In this document: piece by piece, positions 3,592 to 53,985 of the stretch | Layout: every line of letters begins with the position of its first letter | Numbering within the stretch: position 1 is the first letter of the stretch | DNA from: a virus | Length of the DNA: 64,000 nucleotides | Reading direction: 5' to 3' (one strand) | IMG/VR virus record: IMGVR_UViG_3300005663_000003 | Coordinates: 22,672 to 86,671 of that record | Translations under genes and position numbers: made by a program | The notes under the pieces: generated by a model | Databases searched by the model: none | Told to the model about the DNA's origin: nothing | Seen by the model: only the letters and a program-made list of their open reading frames with translations

Positions 3592-6500
3592 TGAGTTCGT
3601 CGCGGCCTCGACTCAGGCCCAGCGATCCCTGGGCGCACTCGGCAAGACCGGGGCGACGGTCGCCACGCAGCTCCAGAATGTGCTGGGAGGAACCGGGACG
3701 CAGCGCGATGCGCTCGGTCGGTTCACGAAGAACGCAGGGAAGGCTCGCGACGCGCTCGGGCGTTTCAAGAAAGAAGGCGCGGCGACTTCCTCCATCTTCT
3801 CCAAGCTGCGCAACACGCTCGGCAAGGTGGGGAGGTCGGCCATCGACGCGGGCAAGTCGGCGGCCTCTGCGTTCCGTTCGGCTGGCGGAATCCTCAAGGA
3901 CATCGCGATCGGCGCCACTGCGGTTGTTGCTGCGCTAGCCGCGATCGGCGGCGCGGCGGTCGTGAACTTCGCCAAGTTCCAAACCGCCTTTAGCCAGGTC
4001 CGCACCCTGGTCGACGAGTCGCAGGTCGACGTCCAACTGCTGAGCGACGGCGTGCGTGAGCTGTCGGTGCGGTTCGGTGTCGACGTCACCGAGGCGACGC
4101 GAGCGGCCTACCAAGCGATCAGCGCCGGGCAGGACCCCGCGAACGTGGTGAACTTCCTCGCCACCGCCTTCGAGAATGCGGCGGCTGGTGCGGCCACCGT
4201 AGTCGAGTCGGTCGACCTTCTGACCTCGGCCCTTAACGTGTTCGAGTCACAAGGGCTCACCGCTGAGCAGGCGTCGGACATCCTGTTCAAAACTGTCGAG
4301 CTTGGCAAGACGACCATCGCCGAACTCGCGGCGAGCTTCGGCCAGGTTGGACCCATCGCCGCTGCCGCCGGGGTGAGCTTCGCCGACCTCGGCGCCGCGC
4401 TCGCGACGACGACGGCCCAAGGCTTGAGCACTGCCGAGGCGTCGACCGCAATCAAGGCGGCCATCGCCGGGATCGTCAACCCGGCTAAGGGGGCTGCTGG
4501 CGCTCTCGAAAGCATCGGCGTCAGTGCGCGGAGTCTCAGAGAGGAGGGCCTGGTCGCGACGTTCGAGAGGATCGGCGACGCGACCGGCGGGGCCATCGAG
4601 AACATCGTAAGGTTCCTCCCCAACATCCGTGCGGTCAACGCGGCGGCGATCCTCGCGGGTAGTGGCCTCGACAAGTTCAGGGCGGCGGCTGAAGGGACCT
4701 CGGATTCAACCGGCGCCGCGTCGCGCGCCTTCGAGAAGCTGGTAGCCGACATTGCCCGAACGTTCAGCATCATCCGCCAGACTCTGACGGACACCTTCCG
4801 CCAGATCGGCGAAGCCTTGACGCCGATCGTCGGTCAACTCGGCAACGTGTTCAGCGCGTTCGCTATGAACACGCGCACAGAGGTCATCGCCCTGACTCGC
4901 GTTCTCGGCGCTCGGTTCGCTGACGCTGGGGACTCGATCGAGGATTTCGAGGCGACGGTGAGCAGCTCGGGCGGCGCGATCAGTCTCGGGCTGAGCGCCG
5001 TGAGCGCCGTGCTGGAAGGTCTCGCCGACGCATTCAATTCGGTCGCCCGCCCCGTCGGCGCCATCGCGGCGTCGTTCGAGTTCCTCGCCACCATCCTCAA
5101 GTCCGCGCTCCTGTCGGTCGTCTCGCTTGTCACGATCGCGCTCAATGGGCTGCTACAGATCATCGTGGGAATCCCCGAGGCGCTCATCCGTCTCGTCTCC
5201 ACGGTCGCCGACTTCATCCCCGGACTCGACGGCCTGGTCAAGAGCCTCGACAAAGCGAGCACCGGACTCAAGGACATCCGCGACGAGGCGCAAGCCTTCT
5301 CGGATTCTCTGGAGGAGTCGCAAGAGGCGGCGGTAAAGGCTGCTGAGGAGTTCGACTTCTCTGCCGTGTTGAATGAAAGTGCGAAGGCGGTGCGTGAAGT
5401 TGGGACCAGCTTCGCGGAAGCCGCCAACGATGTCGAGGACTTCGGCGAGGAAGTCGCAGCGGCAGTGCGCGAGGCGCAGGCCCGGGGCGAGATCGTGCAA
5501 CTCGGCAGCGACCTCAAGACGACGGCAGCCGAGGCGAAGGGCGCAGCCGAAGCACTCACCGAGTTGGGCGAGGCTGGAGCCGGGGCGACCGCCGGGCTCA
5601 ACGCCGCGACGACTGCGACCACCGGACTGAGTCAAGCTCTCCAGGGGATCGCAGGCGGAAGCTCAGAGGCGGCGCGCGGGCTCGCCGACCTCGGGCCTAA
5701 GGCGATGGAAGTCGCCGAGGCCATCGCGGGGATCGGGGCGGCTCAGACCGATGAGCAAGCCTTGGCCCGGCGGCAGGAAGCCATCGCGAACCTGATCGCG
5801 GCGGCGGATGCCGAACTGTCCAAAGCCATCACTGCAGCTCGCGACCGGGGCAGGGAGCAGCTACAGGAAGCGGAAGCGAACCTGCGCGCAGCCCAGGCGA
5901 CCGCACAGGAAGCGGCTGGGACCGAAGTCTTCGCCGCTGCGTTCCGGGAGGAGCGCCGCGCAGCCGACGACCTTGAGGCCACGGTTCGCAGCGTTAACGA
6001 TGCGTTCAACGCCCAGCGCGCCTTGGCGCGCGAAGTCTTCGACTCGGTCATCCAAGACATCGGTGGGATCGATGGCGCGCTGGAGGTCTTCCGCACGGAC
6101 TCCATCGCCAAGGCTGCGACAGCCGGGCGGGCGACCACGGCAGAGGCACGCCGCGTGTTCGACAGGGAAGTGGCCCGGCTGCGTGAGGCGCGGGCCGCTT
6201 CGGAAATCGAGGACGTCGCCTTCTTCGATCAGCTCAATGCAGCACGCGCCCGGCTCAACCAAACCGTGGAGGATGCTGGCGACACGTTCGAGCGGGCGCG
6301 CGACCAGGCCGAGGCTGCCTTCGACCTCGGCACTCAGACGGCATCGGTCAACGAACTCGCAGACGCTCTCACCGGTCCGTTCGCCGAGGCGGTCCAGCAA
6401 GCGCGCGAGGATGCCGAGACGTTCGGCTTCAGTCAGGAGGAGTTGAACGAGGCCCTCAAGGGGATCGTCGAGCAGTCGGAGGAGACGGGCGAGAGCGTTG

Positions 6501-9052: not shown

Positions 9053-9280
9053 ATGAGAGCCTCAGAGCCCCGTGACGTGAGGATGCCCCACGAACGACGA
9101 GACACCGGCAGCCCCCTCACATCGCCTCACCCGGCCCGCCCCAGGGACTACGCGGGGTCAGCGCTCTACGAGCCGTGCCCGTGCGGGGGGTGCGGCGGGC
9201 CGGACGCCTCTCGGCCTCTCTTCGTCGGACCGGTGAGGCCCAGGCCCCAGGACCCCACCCGCTTCGGCGGCCTGCGGTGA
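9053..9280 (+). CDS. Hypothetical protein (CPCGGC motif)
   Basis: ATG 9053 after AAGGA; stop overlaps the next start. Confidence 0.45.
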   Translation: MRASEPRDVRMPHERRDTGSPLTSPHPARPRDYAGSALYEPCPCGGCGGPDASRPLFVGPVRPRPQDPTRFGGLR

Positions 9281-39689: not shown

Positions 39690-39907
39690 TGGGCGGCGTC
39701 AAGCGCGCCACGTTCGCGTGCCCCTACTGCGGGCACGTCAACGTGGCGGCGGCGTCGAGCCTGAACGAAGGCGACAAGCTCGCGCGGTGCGACGCCGAGG
39801 AGAGCGGATGCGATCGTCAGTTCGTCGTGCGCTGGAACATCGCGGCGTCGGCGCGCGGCGTCGGCATCACCGACGAGCTGCCGAAGGTAATGAAGGAGGA
39901 GGGCTGA
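39689..39907 (+). CDS. Zn-ribbon protein
   Basis: CPYCG...CDAEESGCDRQF. Confidence 0.6.
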   Translation: MGGVKRATFACPYCGHVNVAAASSLNEGDKLARCDAEESGCDRQFVVRWNIAASARGVGITDELPKVMKEEG

Positions 39908-41992: not shown

Positions 41993-43101
41993 GCAAGTTC
42001 CGACCGTGTCCCGACTGCAAGGGCCTCGGTGTCGAAAGGCGCCGAGGCGTCATCGCCGAAGTTGACGCGCCATGCGGAAGGTGCAAGGGCGCGAAAGCCA
42101 TCGACGACCTCGGCGCGTGCGCGAAGATGGTCTATCCTCGCGTCAAGGCGGACGAGCGGCTCACCCTGCCGATACCCAAGGAGGGCCTGAGGGCGGGGAC
42201 GCGCATCGACCTCGGCACGACCTGCCCGTTCCCCGCCGACCGCGACTACCACGGGCAACTCCTCTGCGACGGTCACGCCCTGGCGAGAGCGATCGAAGGG
42301 AAGATGGCTTGTCCGACCTGCGGCGGCAACCCGACGAAGGGGATGCACCGTGGCGAGGTCGTCGGTCACGGCAAGGTGATGACCTGCTCCAGCTCCCAGC
42401 ACGAACGCGACCTGCAAGACGTGAGCGCCGCTCTACAGAAGGCGCTGAGCAAACGCGGACCTTTGCCTCCTGAGGAGGTAAGGACGATCGACGCCTTCCA
42501 GTCGACGTCGATCGACCTCGCCACCAGAGAGGTAGACGTGAGCTACGAACTCACCGAGCGTGAGACTCCGCGCACGCCGGGGACCATCCTCGTCGAAGGC
42601 GAGGAGCAACCTTGCCCCGGCGACTGCCGAAGGGGCTTGGTCCCCGCTCGTCACGGTTGGGGCGACTGTCCGGTGTGTTCGTCAGCTCCACCGCCGAAGG
42701 TCGTCGAATCGGCTACGCTCGATTCGGTCGACGTGATTCCGGGCGGCCTCGGCGTCAGGATGAGCAACGTCGTCTTTCGGCCGACTCCCGAGACGTCGCC
42801 GCTCATGGCCGCGATCGAGAACGGTGAGGTAGAGGACGTCGAGCCCGGCGAATCGTTGAGCTACGTGCCGCCCTACACCATTCCGATCGTCGAGACAGAG
42901 GAGGGTGTGACGTTGCTGATCGGTCCGAACATCCGGCAGCGTGTCGAGGCCCTCCCCGGGGATGAGATCCTCAAGAACATGGAGGACGAGGACGAAGACG
43001 AAGACGAAGACGAAGACGACGGATGGCGCTATGGTGATGAGTGCCTCACCGACGGCGAGCGCAACCCCTCAATGGGTGGTCCGCCACAGGATCGTGAATG
43101 A
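41989..43101 (+). CDS. Multi-Zn-finger protein with acidic tail
   Basis: DnaJ-like CPDCKG.G / CGRCKG motifs; EDEDEDED tract. Confidence 0.65.
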   Translation: MSKFRPCPDCKGLGVERRRGVIAEVDAPCGRCKGAKAIDDLGACAKMVYPRVKADERLTLPIPKEGLRAGTRIDLGTTCPFPADRDYHGQLLCDGHALARAIEGKMACPTCGGNPTKGMHRGEVVGHGKVMTCSSSQHERDLQDVSAALQKALSKRGPLPPEEVRTIDAFQSTSIDLATREVDVSYELTERETPRTPGTILVEGEEQPCPGDCRRGLVPARHGWGDCPVCSSAPPPKVVESATLDSVDVIPGGLGVRMSNVVFRPTPETSPLMAAIENGEVEDVEPGESLSYVPPYTIPIVETEEGVTLLIGPNIRQRVEALPGDEILKNMEDEDEDEDEDEDDGWRYGDECLTDGERNPSMGGPPQDRE

Positions 43102-43385
43102 GCATCCAGAGCGACGGCAACGCCTACCGCAAACGGAGCAGGTCGCACCCCGTCCACACGCGCATGGTGACGAAGCGCCGGGCCCGCGCGAACGGTGACA
43201 ACCTCAGCGACCCGCTTGCCATCGAAGGGCACAGGGCGCGCCCCGTGTCGTGCGGCTGTGGGTGGAGCGGAACGATGGACAAGCTGACGAACCCGGCCGG
43301 TGGACCGACACTCGGCGGCGTGAACCTCGGCCCCGGCTTCCCGGTCTGCCCAAAGTGCAAGACCGATGCGAGGCTCGAAGCGTGA
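43098..43385 (+). CDS. Zn-binding hypothetical protein
   Basis: CGCGWSG...CPKC. Confidence 0.55.
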   Translation: MSIQSDGNAYRKRSRSHPVHTRMVTKRRARANGDNLSDPLAIEGHRARPVSCGCGWSGTMDKLTNPAGGPTLGGVNLGPGFPVCPKCKTDARLEA

Positions 43386-43537
43386 GGCAGCTCGCCGAGT
43401 TCGTCTGGGGTCCGAAGGACGCGATCGACCTGACGGTCGTCGTCGTCTGCGTCGTGGTCATCACCATCGCGTGGCTGCTCGATTTGTTCGACCGTTGGAG
43501 GATCAAGCGGAAACAGAAGAAACGAAACCAGAGGTAG
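43382..43537 (+). CDS. Small single-pass membrane protein
   Basis: LTVVVVCVVVITIAWLL followed by a basic tail. Confidence 0.6.
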   Translation: MRQLAEFVWGPKDAIDLTVVVVCVVVITIAWLLDLFDRWRIKRKQKKRNQR

Positions 43538-43994
43538 GCCGGGGGACATAGTGCAAGGCGCCGCGCTGGAGTCAGGCCAAGCCCTTATCCTTTCGGGCGA
43601 AAGAGATGCTGTGAAGTCGTGACCGGCCCAGGGTGGAGCGTTCTCCCCCTTGATTGAAGCGGAACGGCATCGGAAAGCGTAGGGGTGAGCGTCCGTCGGG
43701 TCGGAGTTACTCAAGGGCGGATGGCCCGCCTGCTCCGAATTGGAAACTCGACGGACGCGAATCCTTCCCCACGAATCCCCACCGCTCCACGTCAGGGTGA
43801 AAGGCTTGCCCCCAAATTCCTCAGACCCTGGATGTGCTTCAAGGAATTCGCTCAAGTAGTCGGGCGGCGATGTCGATGTCGGTGGTGCTCCCTAGAAAGG
43901 GAGCTGGCCCAGCGGCTGGTCGGCAACGCTGGGCCAGCTTGGGAACACGAATACTCCCAGGCTAGCACAATGCCGCGACAGCTCTGGGGGGTTC
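43538..43994 (+). ncRNA. Putative large structured RNA / initiator leader, family unknown
   Basis: Longest gap without a credible gene; many nested and crossing helices (see findings). Confidence 0.55.
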
Positions 43995-44963
43995 GTGAGC
44001 GGACACGTTCTTCGGGATGGATGCTTCTCTTGGGTCAGGGCGGTCAGCTCGAACGACGGGCCACCGAAGTCGACGACGCGTCACGTCCTTCTAGCCCTCT
44101 CGCTCTACATGAGCCCGAAGGGGGATAGCTGCTTCCCGTCGATAGCCACCCTGGCCGACGACACCGGGCTGAGCGAGCGCAGCATCATCACGCATCTCCA
44201 AGAGGCCGACGCCCTCGGGTGGATCGCGCGCCAGGCCATGCCGATGCCGTCGAAGGGCAAGGGCTGGAAGCGGATGGCCTACGTCGCGACCGCCCCCGCG
44301 AAGGTCATGCAGCTCGCGCAGAAGGTGGTGAAGGACGTTCACCACGAACAAACCGAAGGCGGTGAACCTGACGACGAAGGTGGTGAACCTGACGGCGATA
44401 TGGTGGTGAAGGACGTTCACCCGATGCATCCAGTAGATGCTTCCAGTGATGCGGCCAGCCCGCCTCGGCCCAAATCCTCCATCCAAGAAAAGGCAGCGAA
44501 GCTCCTCGACTCGGGGAGGGCGACCGCGTGGGAGGAGAAGTTCTTGCGGTCTCAGCTCTCGAAGCTCGCGGCCGGGAAGCCTCTGTCCGTCGACAAGCTC
44601 ATCGAAGTCCTCGACGAACACGGCGAAATCCGGGAAGCGAAATCGGTCAACGTCCCGAGCGTCGCGGATCAGGAGCGCCAGATGCGCGAGACCCTCAAGC
44701 ACGACGAGGGCCTCCTGAAAGAACGCACGGCCGACGACGGACACATACCGCCGGACATCGTCGCGGCGTGTATACGAAAGCGAAACCGCCTGGCCCTCGT
44801 CGTCCCGCCGTGGCTCTCCGAGATGTCCGAGAAGCACCCGGTCGAGCAGACGGAGCCGCGCCGGAGGAAGCTCACGTCCCGTGAGGTCGACTCACGCTTA
44901 GGGAAGATCGCCAAGGCCGCAGACGATGCCGAGAAAGATTCCGCCTCGCAGTCTGTCGGCTGA
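43995..44963 (+). CDS. Replication initiator-like protein (HTH_36-type N-terminus)
   Basis: VLLALS.YM...G..CFPSIATLADDTGLSERSII.HL..A...GWI. Confidence 0.8.
   Translation: MSGHVLRDGCFSWVRAVSSNDGPPKSTTRHVLLALSLYMSPKGDSCFPSIATLADDTGLSERSIITHLQEADALGWIARQAMPMPSKGKGWKRMAYVATAPAKVMQLAQKVVKDVHHEQTEGGEPDDEGGEPDGDMVVKDVHPMHPVDASSDAASPPRPKSSIQEKAAKLLDSGRATAWEEKFLRSQLSKLAAGKPLSVDKLIEVLDEHGEIREAKSVNVPSVADQERQMRETLKHDEGLLKERTADDGHIPPDIVAACIRKRNRLALVVPPWLSEMSEKHPVEQTEPRRRKLTSREVDSRLGKIAKAADDAEKDSASQSVG
44321..44458. repeat. Iteron-like repeats inside the initiator gene, probable origin
   Basis: GG(T/C)GGTGAA x4; GGTGGTGAAGGACGTTCACC x2; GATGCnnCCAG x3. Confidence 0.65.
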
Positions 44964-45001: not shown

Positions 45002-46474
45002 ATGGCTAAGATGAATCCCTTCCAGAAGGCGAAGCGCGGGAAGAAGTGGGTGAAGCTCCTCATCTCCGGGGGGAGCGGCGGGGGCAAGACGCTCACCGCC
45101 TTGCAGATCGCGTGCCACATGGCGGTGGCACTCGGCCGCCCCGGGAGCGTCGCGGTCATCGACACCGAGGACGGGAGCGCGGACCTCTACTCCTACGACA
45201 CCGTCGTCGGGGAGCCATTCTACTGCTCGTGCGAACAGTGCATGAAGGGGCCGCCGAGCGAGCGCCTGGCGCTGGAGTTCGATGTCATCGACCTGCGCGA
45301 CCACAGCCCCCAAGAGTTCCAGGGGAAGATGCGGGCGTCCCTCGATTTCGGCTACTGCATCCTGGTCATGGACTCGGCCTCGCACGAATGGTGCGGGAGG
45401 AACGGGTGCCTGGAGCAGGTCGACGCGCTCAAGGGTGACGGCAAGGGTCGCAAGACCGACAACGCCTGGAACGCCGTTACGCAACTGCACAACGCATTCC
45501 TTTCCGACATCCGCGCGATCCCCATCCACTTGATCGCGACCTGCCGCACGAAGCCCGAGCGTGGCGACGACGGCGGCGAGATCATCATCCAGCGCGACAA
45601 GGACGGACCGTTCTATTACGAGTTCGGGTTCTGGGGATGCGTCACCCGCCAGCAGCCCGGAACTCTCCACATCGCCAAGAGCAGGAGCGGTCACTTCCAA
45701 GGTGAGGTCTGGAAGAAGGCCGGGCGTCACGTCGCTCAGCAGCTCCTGTTCTGGGCCGGGCACCTTCGACAGTCGGAGCCCGTTCCCACGTCAGATTCTC
45801 CCGCGTTGAGTGGGGGGTCCGCTGTCGAGTCGGAGAAGCGACCGACTCCAGCGGGCCCCCCGCCGACCGCTCCCGAGGAGCCGAGGCGCGACCCGAAGAC
45901 GTGCAAGCACACAAGCTGGAGCTTTTACAGCTCGGTCCCCGACGAGGGCGAGCCAATCGCGGGCGCCACGTGCGACGACTGCGGCATCTTCCGCGCTGAG
46001 GAAGGCCCGCCACCAGAGACCGAGGAGCCGGGTCACCGTGTTGGCGTCGCGCTCGGGGACAAGGGACCATTCGTCGGCGGTCAGCCCTCGGAGGCCGAGA
46101 CCGCCGGGCAGACCAAGGACGTCACGGTGTCGGACACCATCGACATCACGGACAGCGTGTCCGCTTCGATCGAGGGACCGAGCGCGGAGCAGGAACGATG
46201 CGCCCACGGCGCCATCAAGGACGGCGCGTGCGTCGACTGCGGTGCCAAGGTCAACGAACCCGACACGTCCGAGCCCGAGCCCGAGGAAGACCCCGAGCTA
46301 CTCAGGTGGACGCTCCAGGCCGAGGAAGCGGTGGCCGCGCTGCCGGATGCGAGCGAGGTCCAAGCGAAGGGCGAGGGCTACGTCACCCGAGCCAAGGGCG
46401 ACATCGAACGCATGAAGCTCACGGTGTCGTGGGCGAACTCCGAGCTGAAGAAGCTCGCCGCAGCCACCGCCTAG
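45002..46474 (+). CDS. AAA_24/Sak4-like ATPase with long acidic Zn-motif C-terminus
   Basis: GGSGGGKT Walker A, VIDTE.GSA.LY, ILVMDSASHEW.G..G.LE.VD; SD AAAGGAG. Confidence 0.85.
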   Translation: MAKMNPFQKAKRGKKWVKLLISGGSGGGKTLTALQIACHMAVALGRPGSVAVIDTEDGSADLYSYDTVVGEPFYCSCEQCMKGPPSERLALEFDVIDLRDHSPQEFQGKMRASLDFGYCILVMDSASHEWCGRNGCLEQVDALKGDGKGRKTDNAWNAVTQLHNAFLSDIRAIPIHLIATCRTKPERGDDGGEIIIQRDKDGPFYYEFGFWGCVTRQQPGTLHIAKSRSGHFQGEVWKKAGRHVAQQLLFWAGHLRQSEPVPTSDSPALSGGSAVESEKRPTPAGPPPTAPEEPRRDPKTCKHTSWSFYSSVPDEGEPIAGATCDDCGIFRAEEGPPPETEEPGHRVGVALGDKGPFVGGQPSEAETAGQTKDVTVSDTIDITDSVSASIEGPSAEQERCAHGAIKDGACVDCGAKVNEPDTSEPEPEEDPELLRWTLQAEEAVAALPDASEVQAKGEGYVTRAKGDIERMKLTVSWANSELKKLAAATA

Positions 46475-53947: not shown

Positions 53948-53979
53948 GGGAGCCGACTCCTAACGGGGTCGGCTTTCTC
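53948..53979 (+). terminator. Intrinsic terminator
   Basis: GGGAGCCGACTCC-taac-GGGGTCGGCTTTC stem running into TTTCT. Confidence 0.7.
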
Positions 53980-53985
53980 CGCTCC

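Follow-up and report, generated by a model that had tools for sequence, protein, structure and literature searches.

Local hairpins and conserved blocks in the non-coding gap upstream of a phage replication initiator gene: a possible composite regulatory leader

Introduction

The dose of the initiator protein is a key control point for phages and plasmids, and its control at the RNA level (antisense RNA, occluded ribosome-binding sites, pseudoknots) has been studied in depth in a few plasmid groups and in the case of the oop RNA of phage lambda, but hardly in uncultured environmental phages. The locus considered here belongs to a phage of the latter kind (IMG/VR virus record IMGVR_UViG_3300005663_000003, 86,671 base pairs (bp)), of which a window of 64,000 nucleotides (nt), bases 22672-86671 of the record, was analysed; positions refer to this window unless stated otherwise. 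Directly upstream of a gene encoding a replication initiator (43995-44963, + strand, 322 amino acids (aa)), 457 nt (43538-43994) carry no credible gene. Which function is served by a gap of this kind, and is it one molecule or several elements side by side? A preliminary description of the sequence had proposed a single, highly structured and pseudoknot-capable RNA of ~450 nt, i.e., an undescribed non-coding RNA (ncRNA) or a leader controlling the initiator. Our own reading, held tentatively and at somewhat less than even confidence, is that the gap holds a composite leader which regulates the replication operon in cis, rather than one folded RNA.

Coding Potential of the Gap

Every credible gene around positions 43538-43994 is located on the + strand. 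The periodicity of the GC content at third codon positions (GC3) amounts to 0.85-0.95 in the flanking genes versus 0.55-0.72, in all three phases, between ~43500 and 43990. No Pfam or PHROG match was obtained for the two long open reading frames (ORFs) 43685-44128 and 43124-43855, which had been named beforehand as places where a conserved protein might be encoded. A frame-by-frame comparison with the phage record L002, the sole close relative compared (56% amino-acid identity of the initiators), revealed no preferentially conserved reading frame, as all six frames give similar weak matches. Furthermore, in the frame starting at 43538 the codon GAA at 43844 becomes a stop in a variant contig, X5. 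Due to the loss of the GC3 phase, the two long ORFs without family matches, the missing frame-specific conservation, and the stop in X5, the gap is non-coding, which agrees with the preliminary description. The GC3-based gene caller used is crude and leaves other gaps of the genome holding ambiguous ORFs.

Global and Local Folding

Folded as a whole on the + strand, the 457 nt reached -199.8 kcal/mol, compared to -189.1 +/- 5.9 kcal/mol for dinucleotide shuffles (z -1.81), and 4 of 100 shuffles were as good. The minimum-free-energy (MFE) fold joins both ends of the gap. In contrast to the whole region, two spots lie far below their shuffles: hairpin A (43685-43762 folded) with -42.7 kcal/mol (z -5.56) on the + strand and -34.6 kcal/mol (z -4.16) on the - strand, and a hairpin cluster at 43887-43963 (43886-43965 folded; z -5.55 / -5.27). 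Among ~8,660 90-nt windows genome-wide, they represent the third and the fifth strongest + strand peak, respectively. The excess structure is thus local, at two spots, and not global. A preference for the + strand, which had been proposed on account of G.U pairs, was seen for hairpin A and for a smaller hairpin B (see below); for the region as a whole, z on the - strand is -3.14.

The eight pairs of complementary strings that the preliminary description had listed are all present at the positions given, seven of them as perfect reverse complements; the GCGTCCGTCGGG/CTCGACGGACGC arm requires one G.U pair. The perfect 13-bp stem described for 43902-14/43927-39 is indeed a perfect inverted repeat and forms part of the stem-loop hp2 within the cluster. 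Complementary words of at least 8 nt are in excess (10 compared to 2.4 +/- 2.1 in shuffles, a level reached by 1 of 300), and nearly all of them derive from the two local hairpins. Complementary 6- and 7-mers, i.e., the class that carries the long-range and crossing pairs, are just mildly enriched (49 versus 35 +/- 8 and 19 versus 9 +/- 4, respectively; 12 of 300 shuffles each). Neither the long-range nor the crossing pairs have been kept in L002, where CCAGGGT/ACCCTGG has no counterpart; the hairpin AATTCCT (43815-21)/AGGAATT (43842-48) folds no better than shuffles (z +1.0), with 5 of its 7 pairs broken in L002, and the domain of the nested outer arm (43640-43785) remains at chance level (z only -1.69). 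For readings of this type, it should be considered that the dense list of complementary words in this DNA of 64% GC was mostly the product of two local hairpins plus chance.

The first 88 nt of the gap (43538-43625) fold worse than 200 out of 200 dinucleotide shuffles (z +1.93), as though selection had kept this segment, which follows immediately on the upstream stop codon, single-stranded.

Conservation

Relatives were searched by protein and by DNA. Among viral contigs, 1 close relative and 35 distant ones were found; metagenome contigs yielded the same L002 contig and genome contigs 25 distant prophage-like loci, while tblastn of the initiator against phage records gave one match with 16% coverage. 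In comparisons of the region with 62 loci by blastn and nhmmer, only L002 and L003 match, L002 from ~43805 onward only. Three scans with DNA patterns recovered the L002 contig only, plus a chance match in L068, an AT-rich contig without the hairpin. No sequence match to 43538-43994 was found in phage records (blastn) or in a plasmid collection. The L002 record is incomplete (31%), and just 418 nt of it precede the initiator.

The 5' ~270 nt of the gap (43538-43808) cannot be aligned to L002 and are lineage-specific, which is a further reason to abandon the single ~450-nt RNA, whereas the 3' ~190 nt are common to both. In this common part, five blocks are 100% identical between the window and L002. 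Identical are CCCCAA at 43810-15 (CCCCCAA from 43809), box A (CCTGGATGTGC, 43827-37), box B (TTCGCTCAAGTA, 43847-58, separated from box A by a variable 9-nt spacer), GTCGGCAAC (43919-27; the 3' part of the hp2 loop and the first base of its 3' arm), and boxes C1 (CAGGCTAGCA, 43958-67) and C2 (GCCGCGACAGC, 43972-82), all given for the + strand. Third codon positions of the adjacent gene are just 54-59% identical between the same two sequences, compared to full identity in five blocks of 9-12 nt, and because of this difference we consider the 3' blocks to be under purifying selection.

An independent view is provided by contig X5 from another study, which covers 43798-43944 with 10 differences to the window, of which 7 are listed and the remaining 3 are situated too close to the contig ends. 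All seven listed differences occur in columns that are also variable or gapped in L002. The spacer between boxes A and B is changed in X5 at 43841 and 43844 only, in both cases to the letters of L002. Contig X5 and a further one, X6, are pieces of 141-201 nt from near relatives.

The combination of box A and box B was also considered as the C-terminus of a peptide (PGCASR.SLK), for which 3 of 4 differing codons are synonymous; this was rejected, since nothing is conserved upstream, no start is aligned, and GC3 is low. Likewise, a repeated promoter class was rejected for boxes A and B, as each occurs once in the genome, the matches obtained when up to 2 mismatches are allowed stay at chance level, and a self-BLAST returned just 13-nt chance matches.

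Structural Elements

The best supported element is hp2 (43901-43940, + strand), a 14-bp stem-loop composed of 13 Watson-Crick pairs and a basal G.U pair with a loop of 12 nt, the 3' part of which (GTCGGCAA) is conserved. Compared to its counterpart in L002 (323-363), 5 of the 14 pairs are compensatory, i.e., changed on both sides, none is broken, and the 3' part of the loop is identical. In the L002 record, the hp2 region is the third (+ strand) and second (- strand) strongest folding peak. The covariation looked for in the gap was thus seen for one helix in two sequences.

Downstream of hp2, a stem-loop hp4 (43946-43997, + strand) is predicted, in which 43946-63 pairs with 43980-97. It encloses boxes C1 and C2, with C2 in its loop, and covers the Shine-Dalgarno sequence GGGGGG (43986-91) as well as the GTG start of the initiator gene (43995-97); its predicted MFE is -26.0 kcal/mol (z -2.8, mononucleotide shuffles). 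At positions -14 to +3 of the initiator start, the mean unpaired probability is 0.08; among 107 predicted gene starts, for which the median is 0.42, no other value is as low. When the segment from hp2 to the start is folded, both phages give the full hp2, followed by a hairpin pairing the 5' part of C1 and the preceding bases with the Shine-Dalgarno sequence; the GUG itself is paired in the window only, in the predicted hp4. Depending on the non-canonical start assumed for L002, its Shine-Dalgarno zone ranks among the lowest 0-22% of 32 genes in accessibility. When the hp2 loop is paired with the 70 nt that lie downstream, box C2 provides the best duplex in both phages (-14.8 kcal/mol in the window and -10.8 kcal/mol in L002). 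As loop and box are both invariant, there is no covariation between them.

On the opposite strand, box C1 contains TGCTAGCCT (43959-43967), a candidate counter-promoter with the -10-like hexamer TAGCCT, which has T-A at the first two positions and T at the last, and TG one base upstream. Both phages (2 of 2) have kept this sequence, which lies 28 nt before the initiator start and is directed into hp2. A hypothetical countertranscript of ~59 nt (43894-43952, - strand) would begin with 13 nt of 5' tail, continue with the complement of hp2, and end in the tail CCCUUUCU, and is predicted to fold as a single stem-loop (-29.6 kcal/mol; -35.8 kcal/mol for the L002 equivalent).

Upstream of hp2, RNAalifold predicts hairpin B (43848-43867; UCGCUC / GGGCGG) as a consensus structure of the two phages. 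All six pairs are kept in L002, one of them changed from U.G to U-A, and due to the need for two G.U pairs the hairpin forms on the + strand only. The segment between hairpin B and hp2 (43869-43900) is variable: it holds most of hairpin 1 (43887-43904), which is missing from L002, appears as a gap in the L002 alignment, and accounts for 5 of the 7 differences listed for X5, including one that disrupts a pair of hairpin 1.

The 5' part of the gap starts with a lineage-specific spacer (43538-43688) that has an unstructured 5' end and does not align to L002. It is followed by hairpin A (43689-43758, + strand), a long irregular stem-loop with a 12-bp base and two inner helices, which is 8 kcal/mol more stable on the + than on the - strand because of G.U pairs. 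L002 has a non-homologous hairpin at 110-181 (z -4.12 on the + and -0.94 on the - strand) that is situated 141 nt before its hp2, compared to 142 nt for hairpin A in the window, and ranks 41st among the 2,673 windows of its own record (top 1.5%). Directly after hairpin A lies a C-rich, G-poor tract (43756-43790, + strand), whose (C-G)/length of 0.43 places it in the top 0.085% of the 35-nt windows genome-wide.

Two further pairings were considered and discarded. In the first, proposed by RNAalifold, box A would pair over a long distance with codons 3-6 of the initiator gene (10 pairs, 1 compensatory). This helix does not stand out in energy; box A shuffles equal it in 39% and 77% of cases and the best duplex of box A lies elsewhere. 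A candidate anti-Shine-Dalgarno sequence, CCCCCA (43809-14), pairs with the Shine-Dalgarno sequence in both phages, but ~8% of the shuffles reach this in each.

Known Families and Sequence Signals

With Rfam 15, no match at the gathering score was obtained in the whole window, 6C, skipping-rope, P17, transfer-messenger RNA (tmRNA), RNase P, signal recognition particle RNA, group I/II introns, and riboswitches included, which agrees with the earlier failure to assign the gap to a known family. At E<=10, three sub-threshold matches occur in 43300-44200 (22.9 bits compared to a gathering score of 47, 15.4 to 36.7, and 13.3 to 45). Positions 1-520 of L002 give 10 weak matches, none of them to these families. 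ARAGORN predicted no tRNA or tmRNA gene in the window and none in 43400-44100 at the relaxed setting ps80, so that the resemblance of a segment to the T-arm and acceptor 3' end of a tRNA, which the preliminary description had pointed out, is not borne out.

A scan for sigma-70 consensus promoters and a scan for intrinsic terminators in 43000-44500 returned no hit on either strand. Elsewhere, the same phage has near-consensus TTGACA-17-TATAAT promoters, and its likely real intrinsic terminators, which served as an internal standard, are GC-rich stems with T-rich tails (TTGTGTAT, TTTCTCC, TTTTCC) in intergenic gaps (window ~2583-2625 and ~53948-53985; genome ~6105-6150). The tails flanking hp2 in the window read, by eye, TTGGGAAC (+) and CCCTTTCT (-), and the + tail in L002 reads TTTGATT. 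Hence hp2 does not show the combination of a GC-rich stem and an immediate T-tract, and no clear U-tract is found in either direction in the window. Compared by eye with consensus sequences for nut boxA, DnaA, IHF, sigma-54, extracytoplasmic function sigma factors, and LexA, none of the boxes fits.

Function of the Gap

The + strand bias of the conserved structures, the covariation of hp2, and the occluded start fit a leader that controls the initiator, and in this respect one half of the earlier proposal persists, the half that foresaw a single pseudoknot-capable ncRNA having failed. A composite leader might operate as follows. At hairpin A and the C-rich tract, early transcripts would be processed, paused, or partly terminated at a junction of gene modules; the shape of hairpin A is compatible with an RNase III processing site of the T7 early-region type, for which cleavage occurs within an irregular hairpin of ~20 bp. 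The 3' ~190 nt (43809-43994) travel with the initiator gene, and in the + strand mRNA they would fold into hairpin B, hp2, and hp4. As hp4 is predicted to lock the Shine-Dalgarno sequence and the GUG, the initiator would be poorly translated by default. This lock might be released or reinforced in two ways, singly or together: the hp2 loop might contact box C2, to which it is partly complementary and which sits in the hp4 loop, and a ~60-nt countertranscript starting from TGCTAGCCT on the minus strand might read across hp2. As a net effect, the dose of the initiator would be set for the probable origin inside its own gene, a task served in lambda by pR, pO, and oop and in IncFII and IncI plasmids by antisense RNA and structured rep leaders. 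It is tempting to go one step further and to assume a large, apparently non-integrating marine-sediment phage with a plasmid-style copy control, in which a ~60-nt antisense RNA from the conserved minus-strand element would target the hp2 loop and counteract an hp2 loop-C2 contact that activates translation of the initiator in an IncI-like manner, and which would have evolved independently in the position of lambda oop; taken together, these assumptions are speculative and rather improbable.

Several observations speak against the regulatory leader. Two sequences, the window and L002, make up the comparative evidence, to which protein P0002 adds a partial view with an N-terminus that reads through the region. 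The proposed mechanism does not account for boxes A and B, although no other parts are as conserved, and the scans reveal neither a promoter nor a terminator for such a leader, although the phage has both elsewhere; TGCTAGCCT on the minus strand falls below the threshold of the sigma-70 consensus scan. The helix of L002 that is equivalent to hp4 and pairs with the Shine-Dalgarno sequence is not distinguished from shuffles (z +0.36), and the duplex energies of the hp2 loop with C2 are reached by loop shuffles in 3.3% (window) and 35% (L002) of cases. The common position of hairpin A and the unrelated L002 hairpin is suggestive only and could be coincidence. Finally, the long leader is specific to this lineage and not family-wide, as the distant initiator relatives L004 and L005 have a cro-like gene, as in lambda, and a gap of ~55 nt in its place.

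The main rival, which we regard as possible though on the unlikely side, is a plain module junction at the DNA level, in which hp2 and perhaps hairpin A would be terminators of the early operon and the boxes a promoter and operator of the replication operon, with A, B, and C1 as protein-binding DNA and no regulation at the RNA level. Phages commonly have junctions of a terminator followed by a promoter. The abrupt start of the L002 homology at ~43805 resembles a mosaic joint, hp2 of L002 is followed by the T-rich tail TTTGATT, both phages have kept a TTG at the 3' foot of hp2 and, 17 nt further on, TAGCA, and the sequences of boxes A and B, which flank a variable spacer of 9 nt, are conserved in the manner of a bipartite binding site. 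However, no sigma-70-like promoter or intrinsic terminator was detected here on either strand, although the phage uses both elsewhere, and the final T is missing from the candidate -10 on the + strand. In terminators the loop sequence is normally not conserved, whereas that of hp2 is, and the occlusion of the ribosome-binding site and the G.U-dependent hairpins of the + strand would find no explanation. The latter two points also bear on a role of the hairpin cluster, above all hp2, as an accessory structure of the origin, i.e., a single-stranded DNA or cruciform signal for priming or helicase loading: the dependence of hairpins A and B on G.U pairs and their + strand bias point to RNA, and the occluded Shine-Dalgarno sequence is again left aside. 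Even though the hairpin cluster is located ~400 nt from the iteron array in the initiator gene, the perfect 13-bp inverted repeat of hp2 folds with about the same quality on either strand, and its covariation and conserved loop would suit a structure-specific recognition, we consider this role quite unlikely.

Small proteins or a leader peptide coupled translationally to the initiator have very little probability in our view, e.g., a 31-codon ORF (43870-43965) that spans hp2 and ends with a TAG in box C1. ATG-started ORFs of 31 codons in the window and 26 codons in L002 do share their stop, a conserved TAG located 29 nt ahead of the initiator start, and according to PMC8053102 such peptides are used by the rep genes of IncFII and IncI plasmids. 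The two start codons are not aligned, though, and the ATG of L002 has no Shine-Dalgarno sequence; GC3 of the ORF is ~0.58 (hand count) compared to >0.85 in the flanking genes, an open frame of 30 codons is estimated to occur by chance in ~40% of cases at this GC content, and the peptide sequence is not conserved, with similar weak matches to L002 in six frames. The N-terminus of P0002, which reads through the region, presumably means that the TAG is absent in that relative. Least probable of all is the free-standing, pseudoknotted ncRNA of ~450 nt and of a new class, to which the absence of a known family, the many complementary segments, and the MFE fold joining both ends had pointed. Apart from the weak global folding and the unconserved 5' 270 nt, its outer arm, the hairpin 43815/43842, and its crossing pairs either do not exceed chance or are disrupted in L002, its 5' 88 nt are less structured than every shuffle, and no promoter and terminator bracket it as a unit.

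If the composite regulatory leader is confirmed, the gap would offer a compact and testable leader with a covarying stem-loop, five invariant boxes, and an occluded start in a lineage without a cultured member.

Initiator Gene and Genomic Context

The initiator carries an N-terminal HTH_36 domain (3.1e-10, residues 27-77) and matches the PHROG 'replication initiation O-like' (5.9e-12), in accordance with its earlier designation. The public gene call P0001 (284 aa) starts with the ATG at 44109 and loses the first 38 residues; as the helix-turn-helix begins before 44109 and the N-termini of P0003 and P0005 align at 43995, the GTG at 43995 is taken as the start. The initiators P0002, P0003, and P0005 share 58-67% identity with the one studied here. 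In L002, no ATG, GTG, or TTG is aligned with the initiator start at 413-421, the aligned codon being CTG after two ATT codons. The public L002 protein P0004 (297 aa) starts further downstream, and the L002 initiator may have a non-canonical start.

Inside the initiator gene, an iteron array of four direct GG(T/C)GGTGAA repeats (44324-44421, also 44358-44394, + strand) was found, the outer two repeats of which are exact 20-bp copies, each with an inverted TTCACC. It is also present in L002 (724-821), and the GC3 phase is locally broken in this region (44280-44400). This array is very probably the origin of replication, as in lambda O. An autoregulatory iteron in the leader was rejected, since the GGTGAA at 43796 of the window is represented in L002 by a site with 1 mismatch on the other strand and at a different position and is thus not conserved.

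The gene upstream of the gap (43382-43537, + strand) encodes a small hydrophobic (membrane) protein of 51 aa, with its stop codon ending at 43537 and a GC3 phase of 0.85-0.93 in this frame, which was also selected by the GC3-based gene caller. For the two proteins upstream of the gap, no relatives were found among viral contigs. The initiator gene is followed by an AAA_24 ATPase gene (ORF of 502 aa), within which a very stable hairpin is located at ~45810-45865 (111-nt context -60.3 kcal/mol; sixth strongest + strand peak). It lies just past the part matching PHROG 1366 (residues 19-271) and could be a recoding site or indicate where a domain or gene ends. Another strong hairpin (~39700-39750; 111-nt context -61.1 kcal/mol) is situated just inside the gene starting at the 39689 junction, downstream of an overlapping stop/start. 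The most stable structure of the whole genome (-63.1 kcal/mol, genome ~9091-9200) occurs just upstream of the one tRNA-Met gene predicted by ARAGORN (genome 9198-9272, outside the window).

The phage genome of 86.7 kb has direct terminal repeats, is rated 100% complete, and has a GC content of ~65%; the sequencing runs containing this sequence are labelled as marine-sediment metagenomes, and no RNA run was listed among those containing the gap. In the assembly of run X3 (~4.8 million letters), which carries an organism name as label, the stretch occurs without differences on a contig of 15,210 nt; this may reflect a link to a host or a binning artefact. No match to PF00589 or PF00239 (tyrosine-integrase or resolvase-type recombinase) was obtained in the complete 86,671-bp genome, the controls being positive in 14 of 14 and 12 of 14 genomes, respectively. 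An attP site overlapping a tRNA 3' end was excluded for the gap, due to the absence of these recombinase domains.

Comparison with Known Systems

By its kind, the proposed element is a structured leader of a replication-initiator gene, as known from lambda and several plasmid groups, with no family match here. In lambda, the origin lies in the middle of O, and pO adjoins the start of O, with a mutation of the pO region located 2 bp from the first O codon; according to the same passages, pO makes the short antisense oop RNA, and the convergent activity of pO tunes rightward transcription from pR into the origin and replication (PMC3985674). The phage studied here is similar in that its initiator is O-like, that iterons occupy the middle of the initiator gene, and that the opposite strand carries a conserved -10-like element, which lies a short distance upstream of the gene start and points into a stable hairpin. 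The predicted product would also be of a similar size, ~60 nt compared to 77 nt for oop RNA. This -10-like element, TGCTAGCCT, is conserved in 2 of 2 sequences, but the candidate promoter matches the consensus weakly, with no promoter-like site returned by the consensus scan. Whereas oop overlaps cII, no coding gene lies under the putative countertranscript, and hp2, the hairpin in question, covaries but carries no clear U-tract. Different from what the passages on lambda describe, the hairpin loop is conserved in sequence and the ribosome-binding site of the initiator is predicted to be occluded.

A long irregular hairpin as in the early genes of phage T7, which are processed by RNase III, is resembled by hairpin A, a ~70-nt + strand hairpin with internal loops in a gap between modules of a long same-strand operon. 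Unlike in T7, the junction has a single hairpin of this type, with a sequence that L002 does not share.

As for plasmids, the passages of PMC8053102 on IncFII, IncI1, and IncB describe that antisense RNA together with a leader peptide or a pseudoknot controls the rep genes. IncFII (R1 CopA/tap/repA) and IncI1/IncB (Inc RNA/repY/repZ pseudoknot) differ from the gap in several respects: there is no sequence or Rfam similarity, the initiator belongs to another family (HTH_36, O-like), and the replicon is an 86.7-kb phage with terminal repeats, without a recombinase domain, and without a match in the plasmid collection. A leader ORF and a pseudoknot have no clear statistical support here; the ORFs of 31 and 26 codons share their TAG in 2 of 2 sequences, with unaligned starts and neither codon bias nor peptide conservation. 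Common to these systems and the gap are a long structured leader before the initiator gene, a stem-loop with a conserved loop and a partly complementary segment downstream, close to the ribosome-binding site, a possible countertranscript across this stem-loop, and a possible short leader ORF. A sequestered ribosome-binding site is likewise predicted for the initiator gene (accessibility 0.08; hp4 z -2.8), the corresponding helix of L002 being not above shuffles. If this leader is real, the lambda layout, with the origin in the initiator gene and a counter-promoter at its 5' end, would extend to distant O-like replicons.

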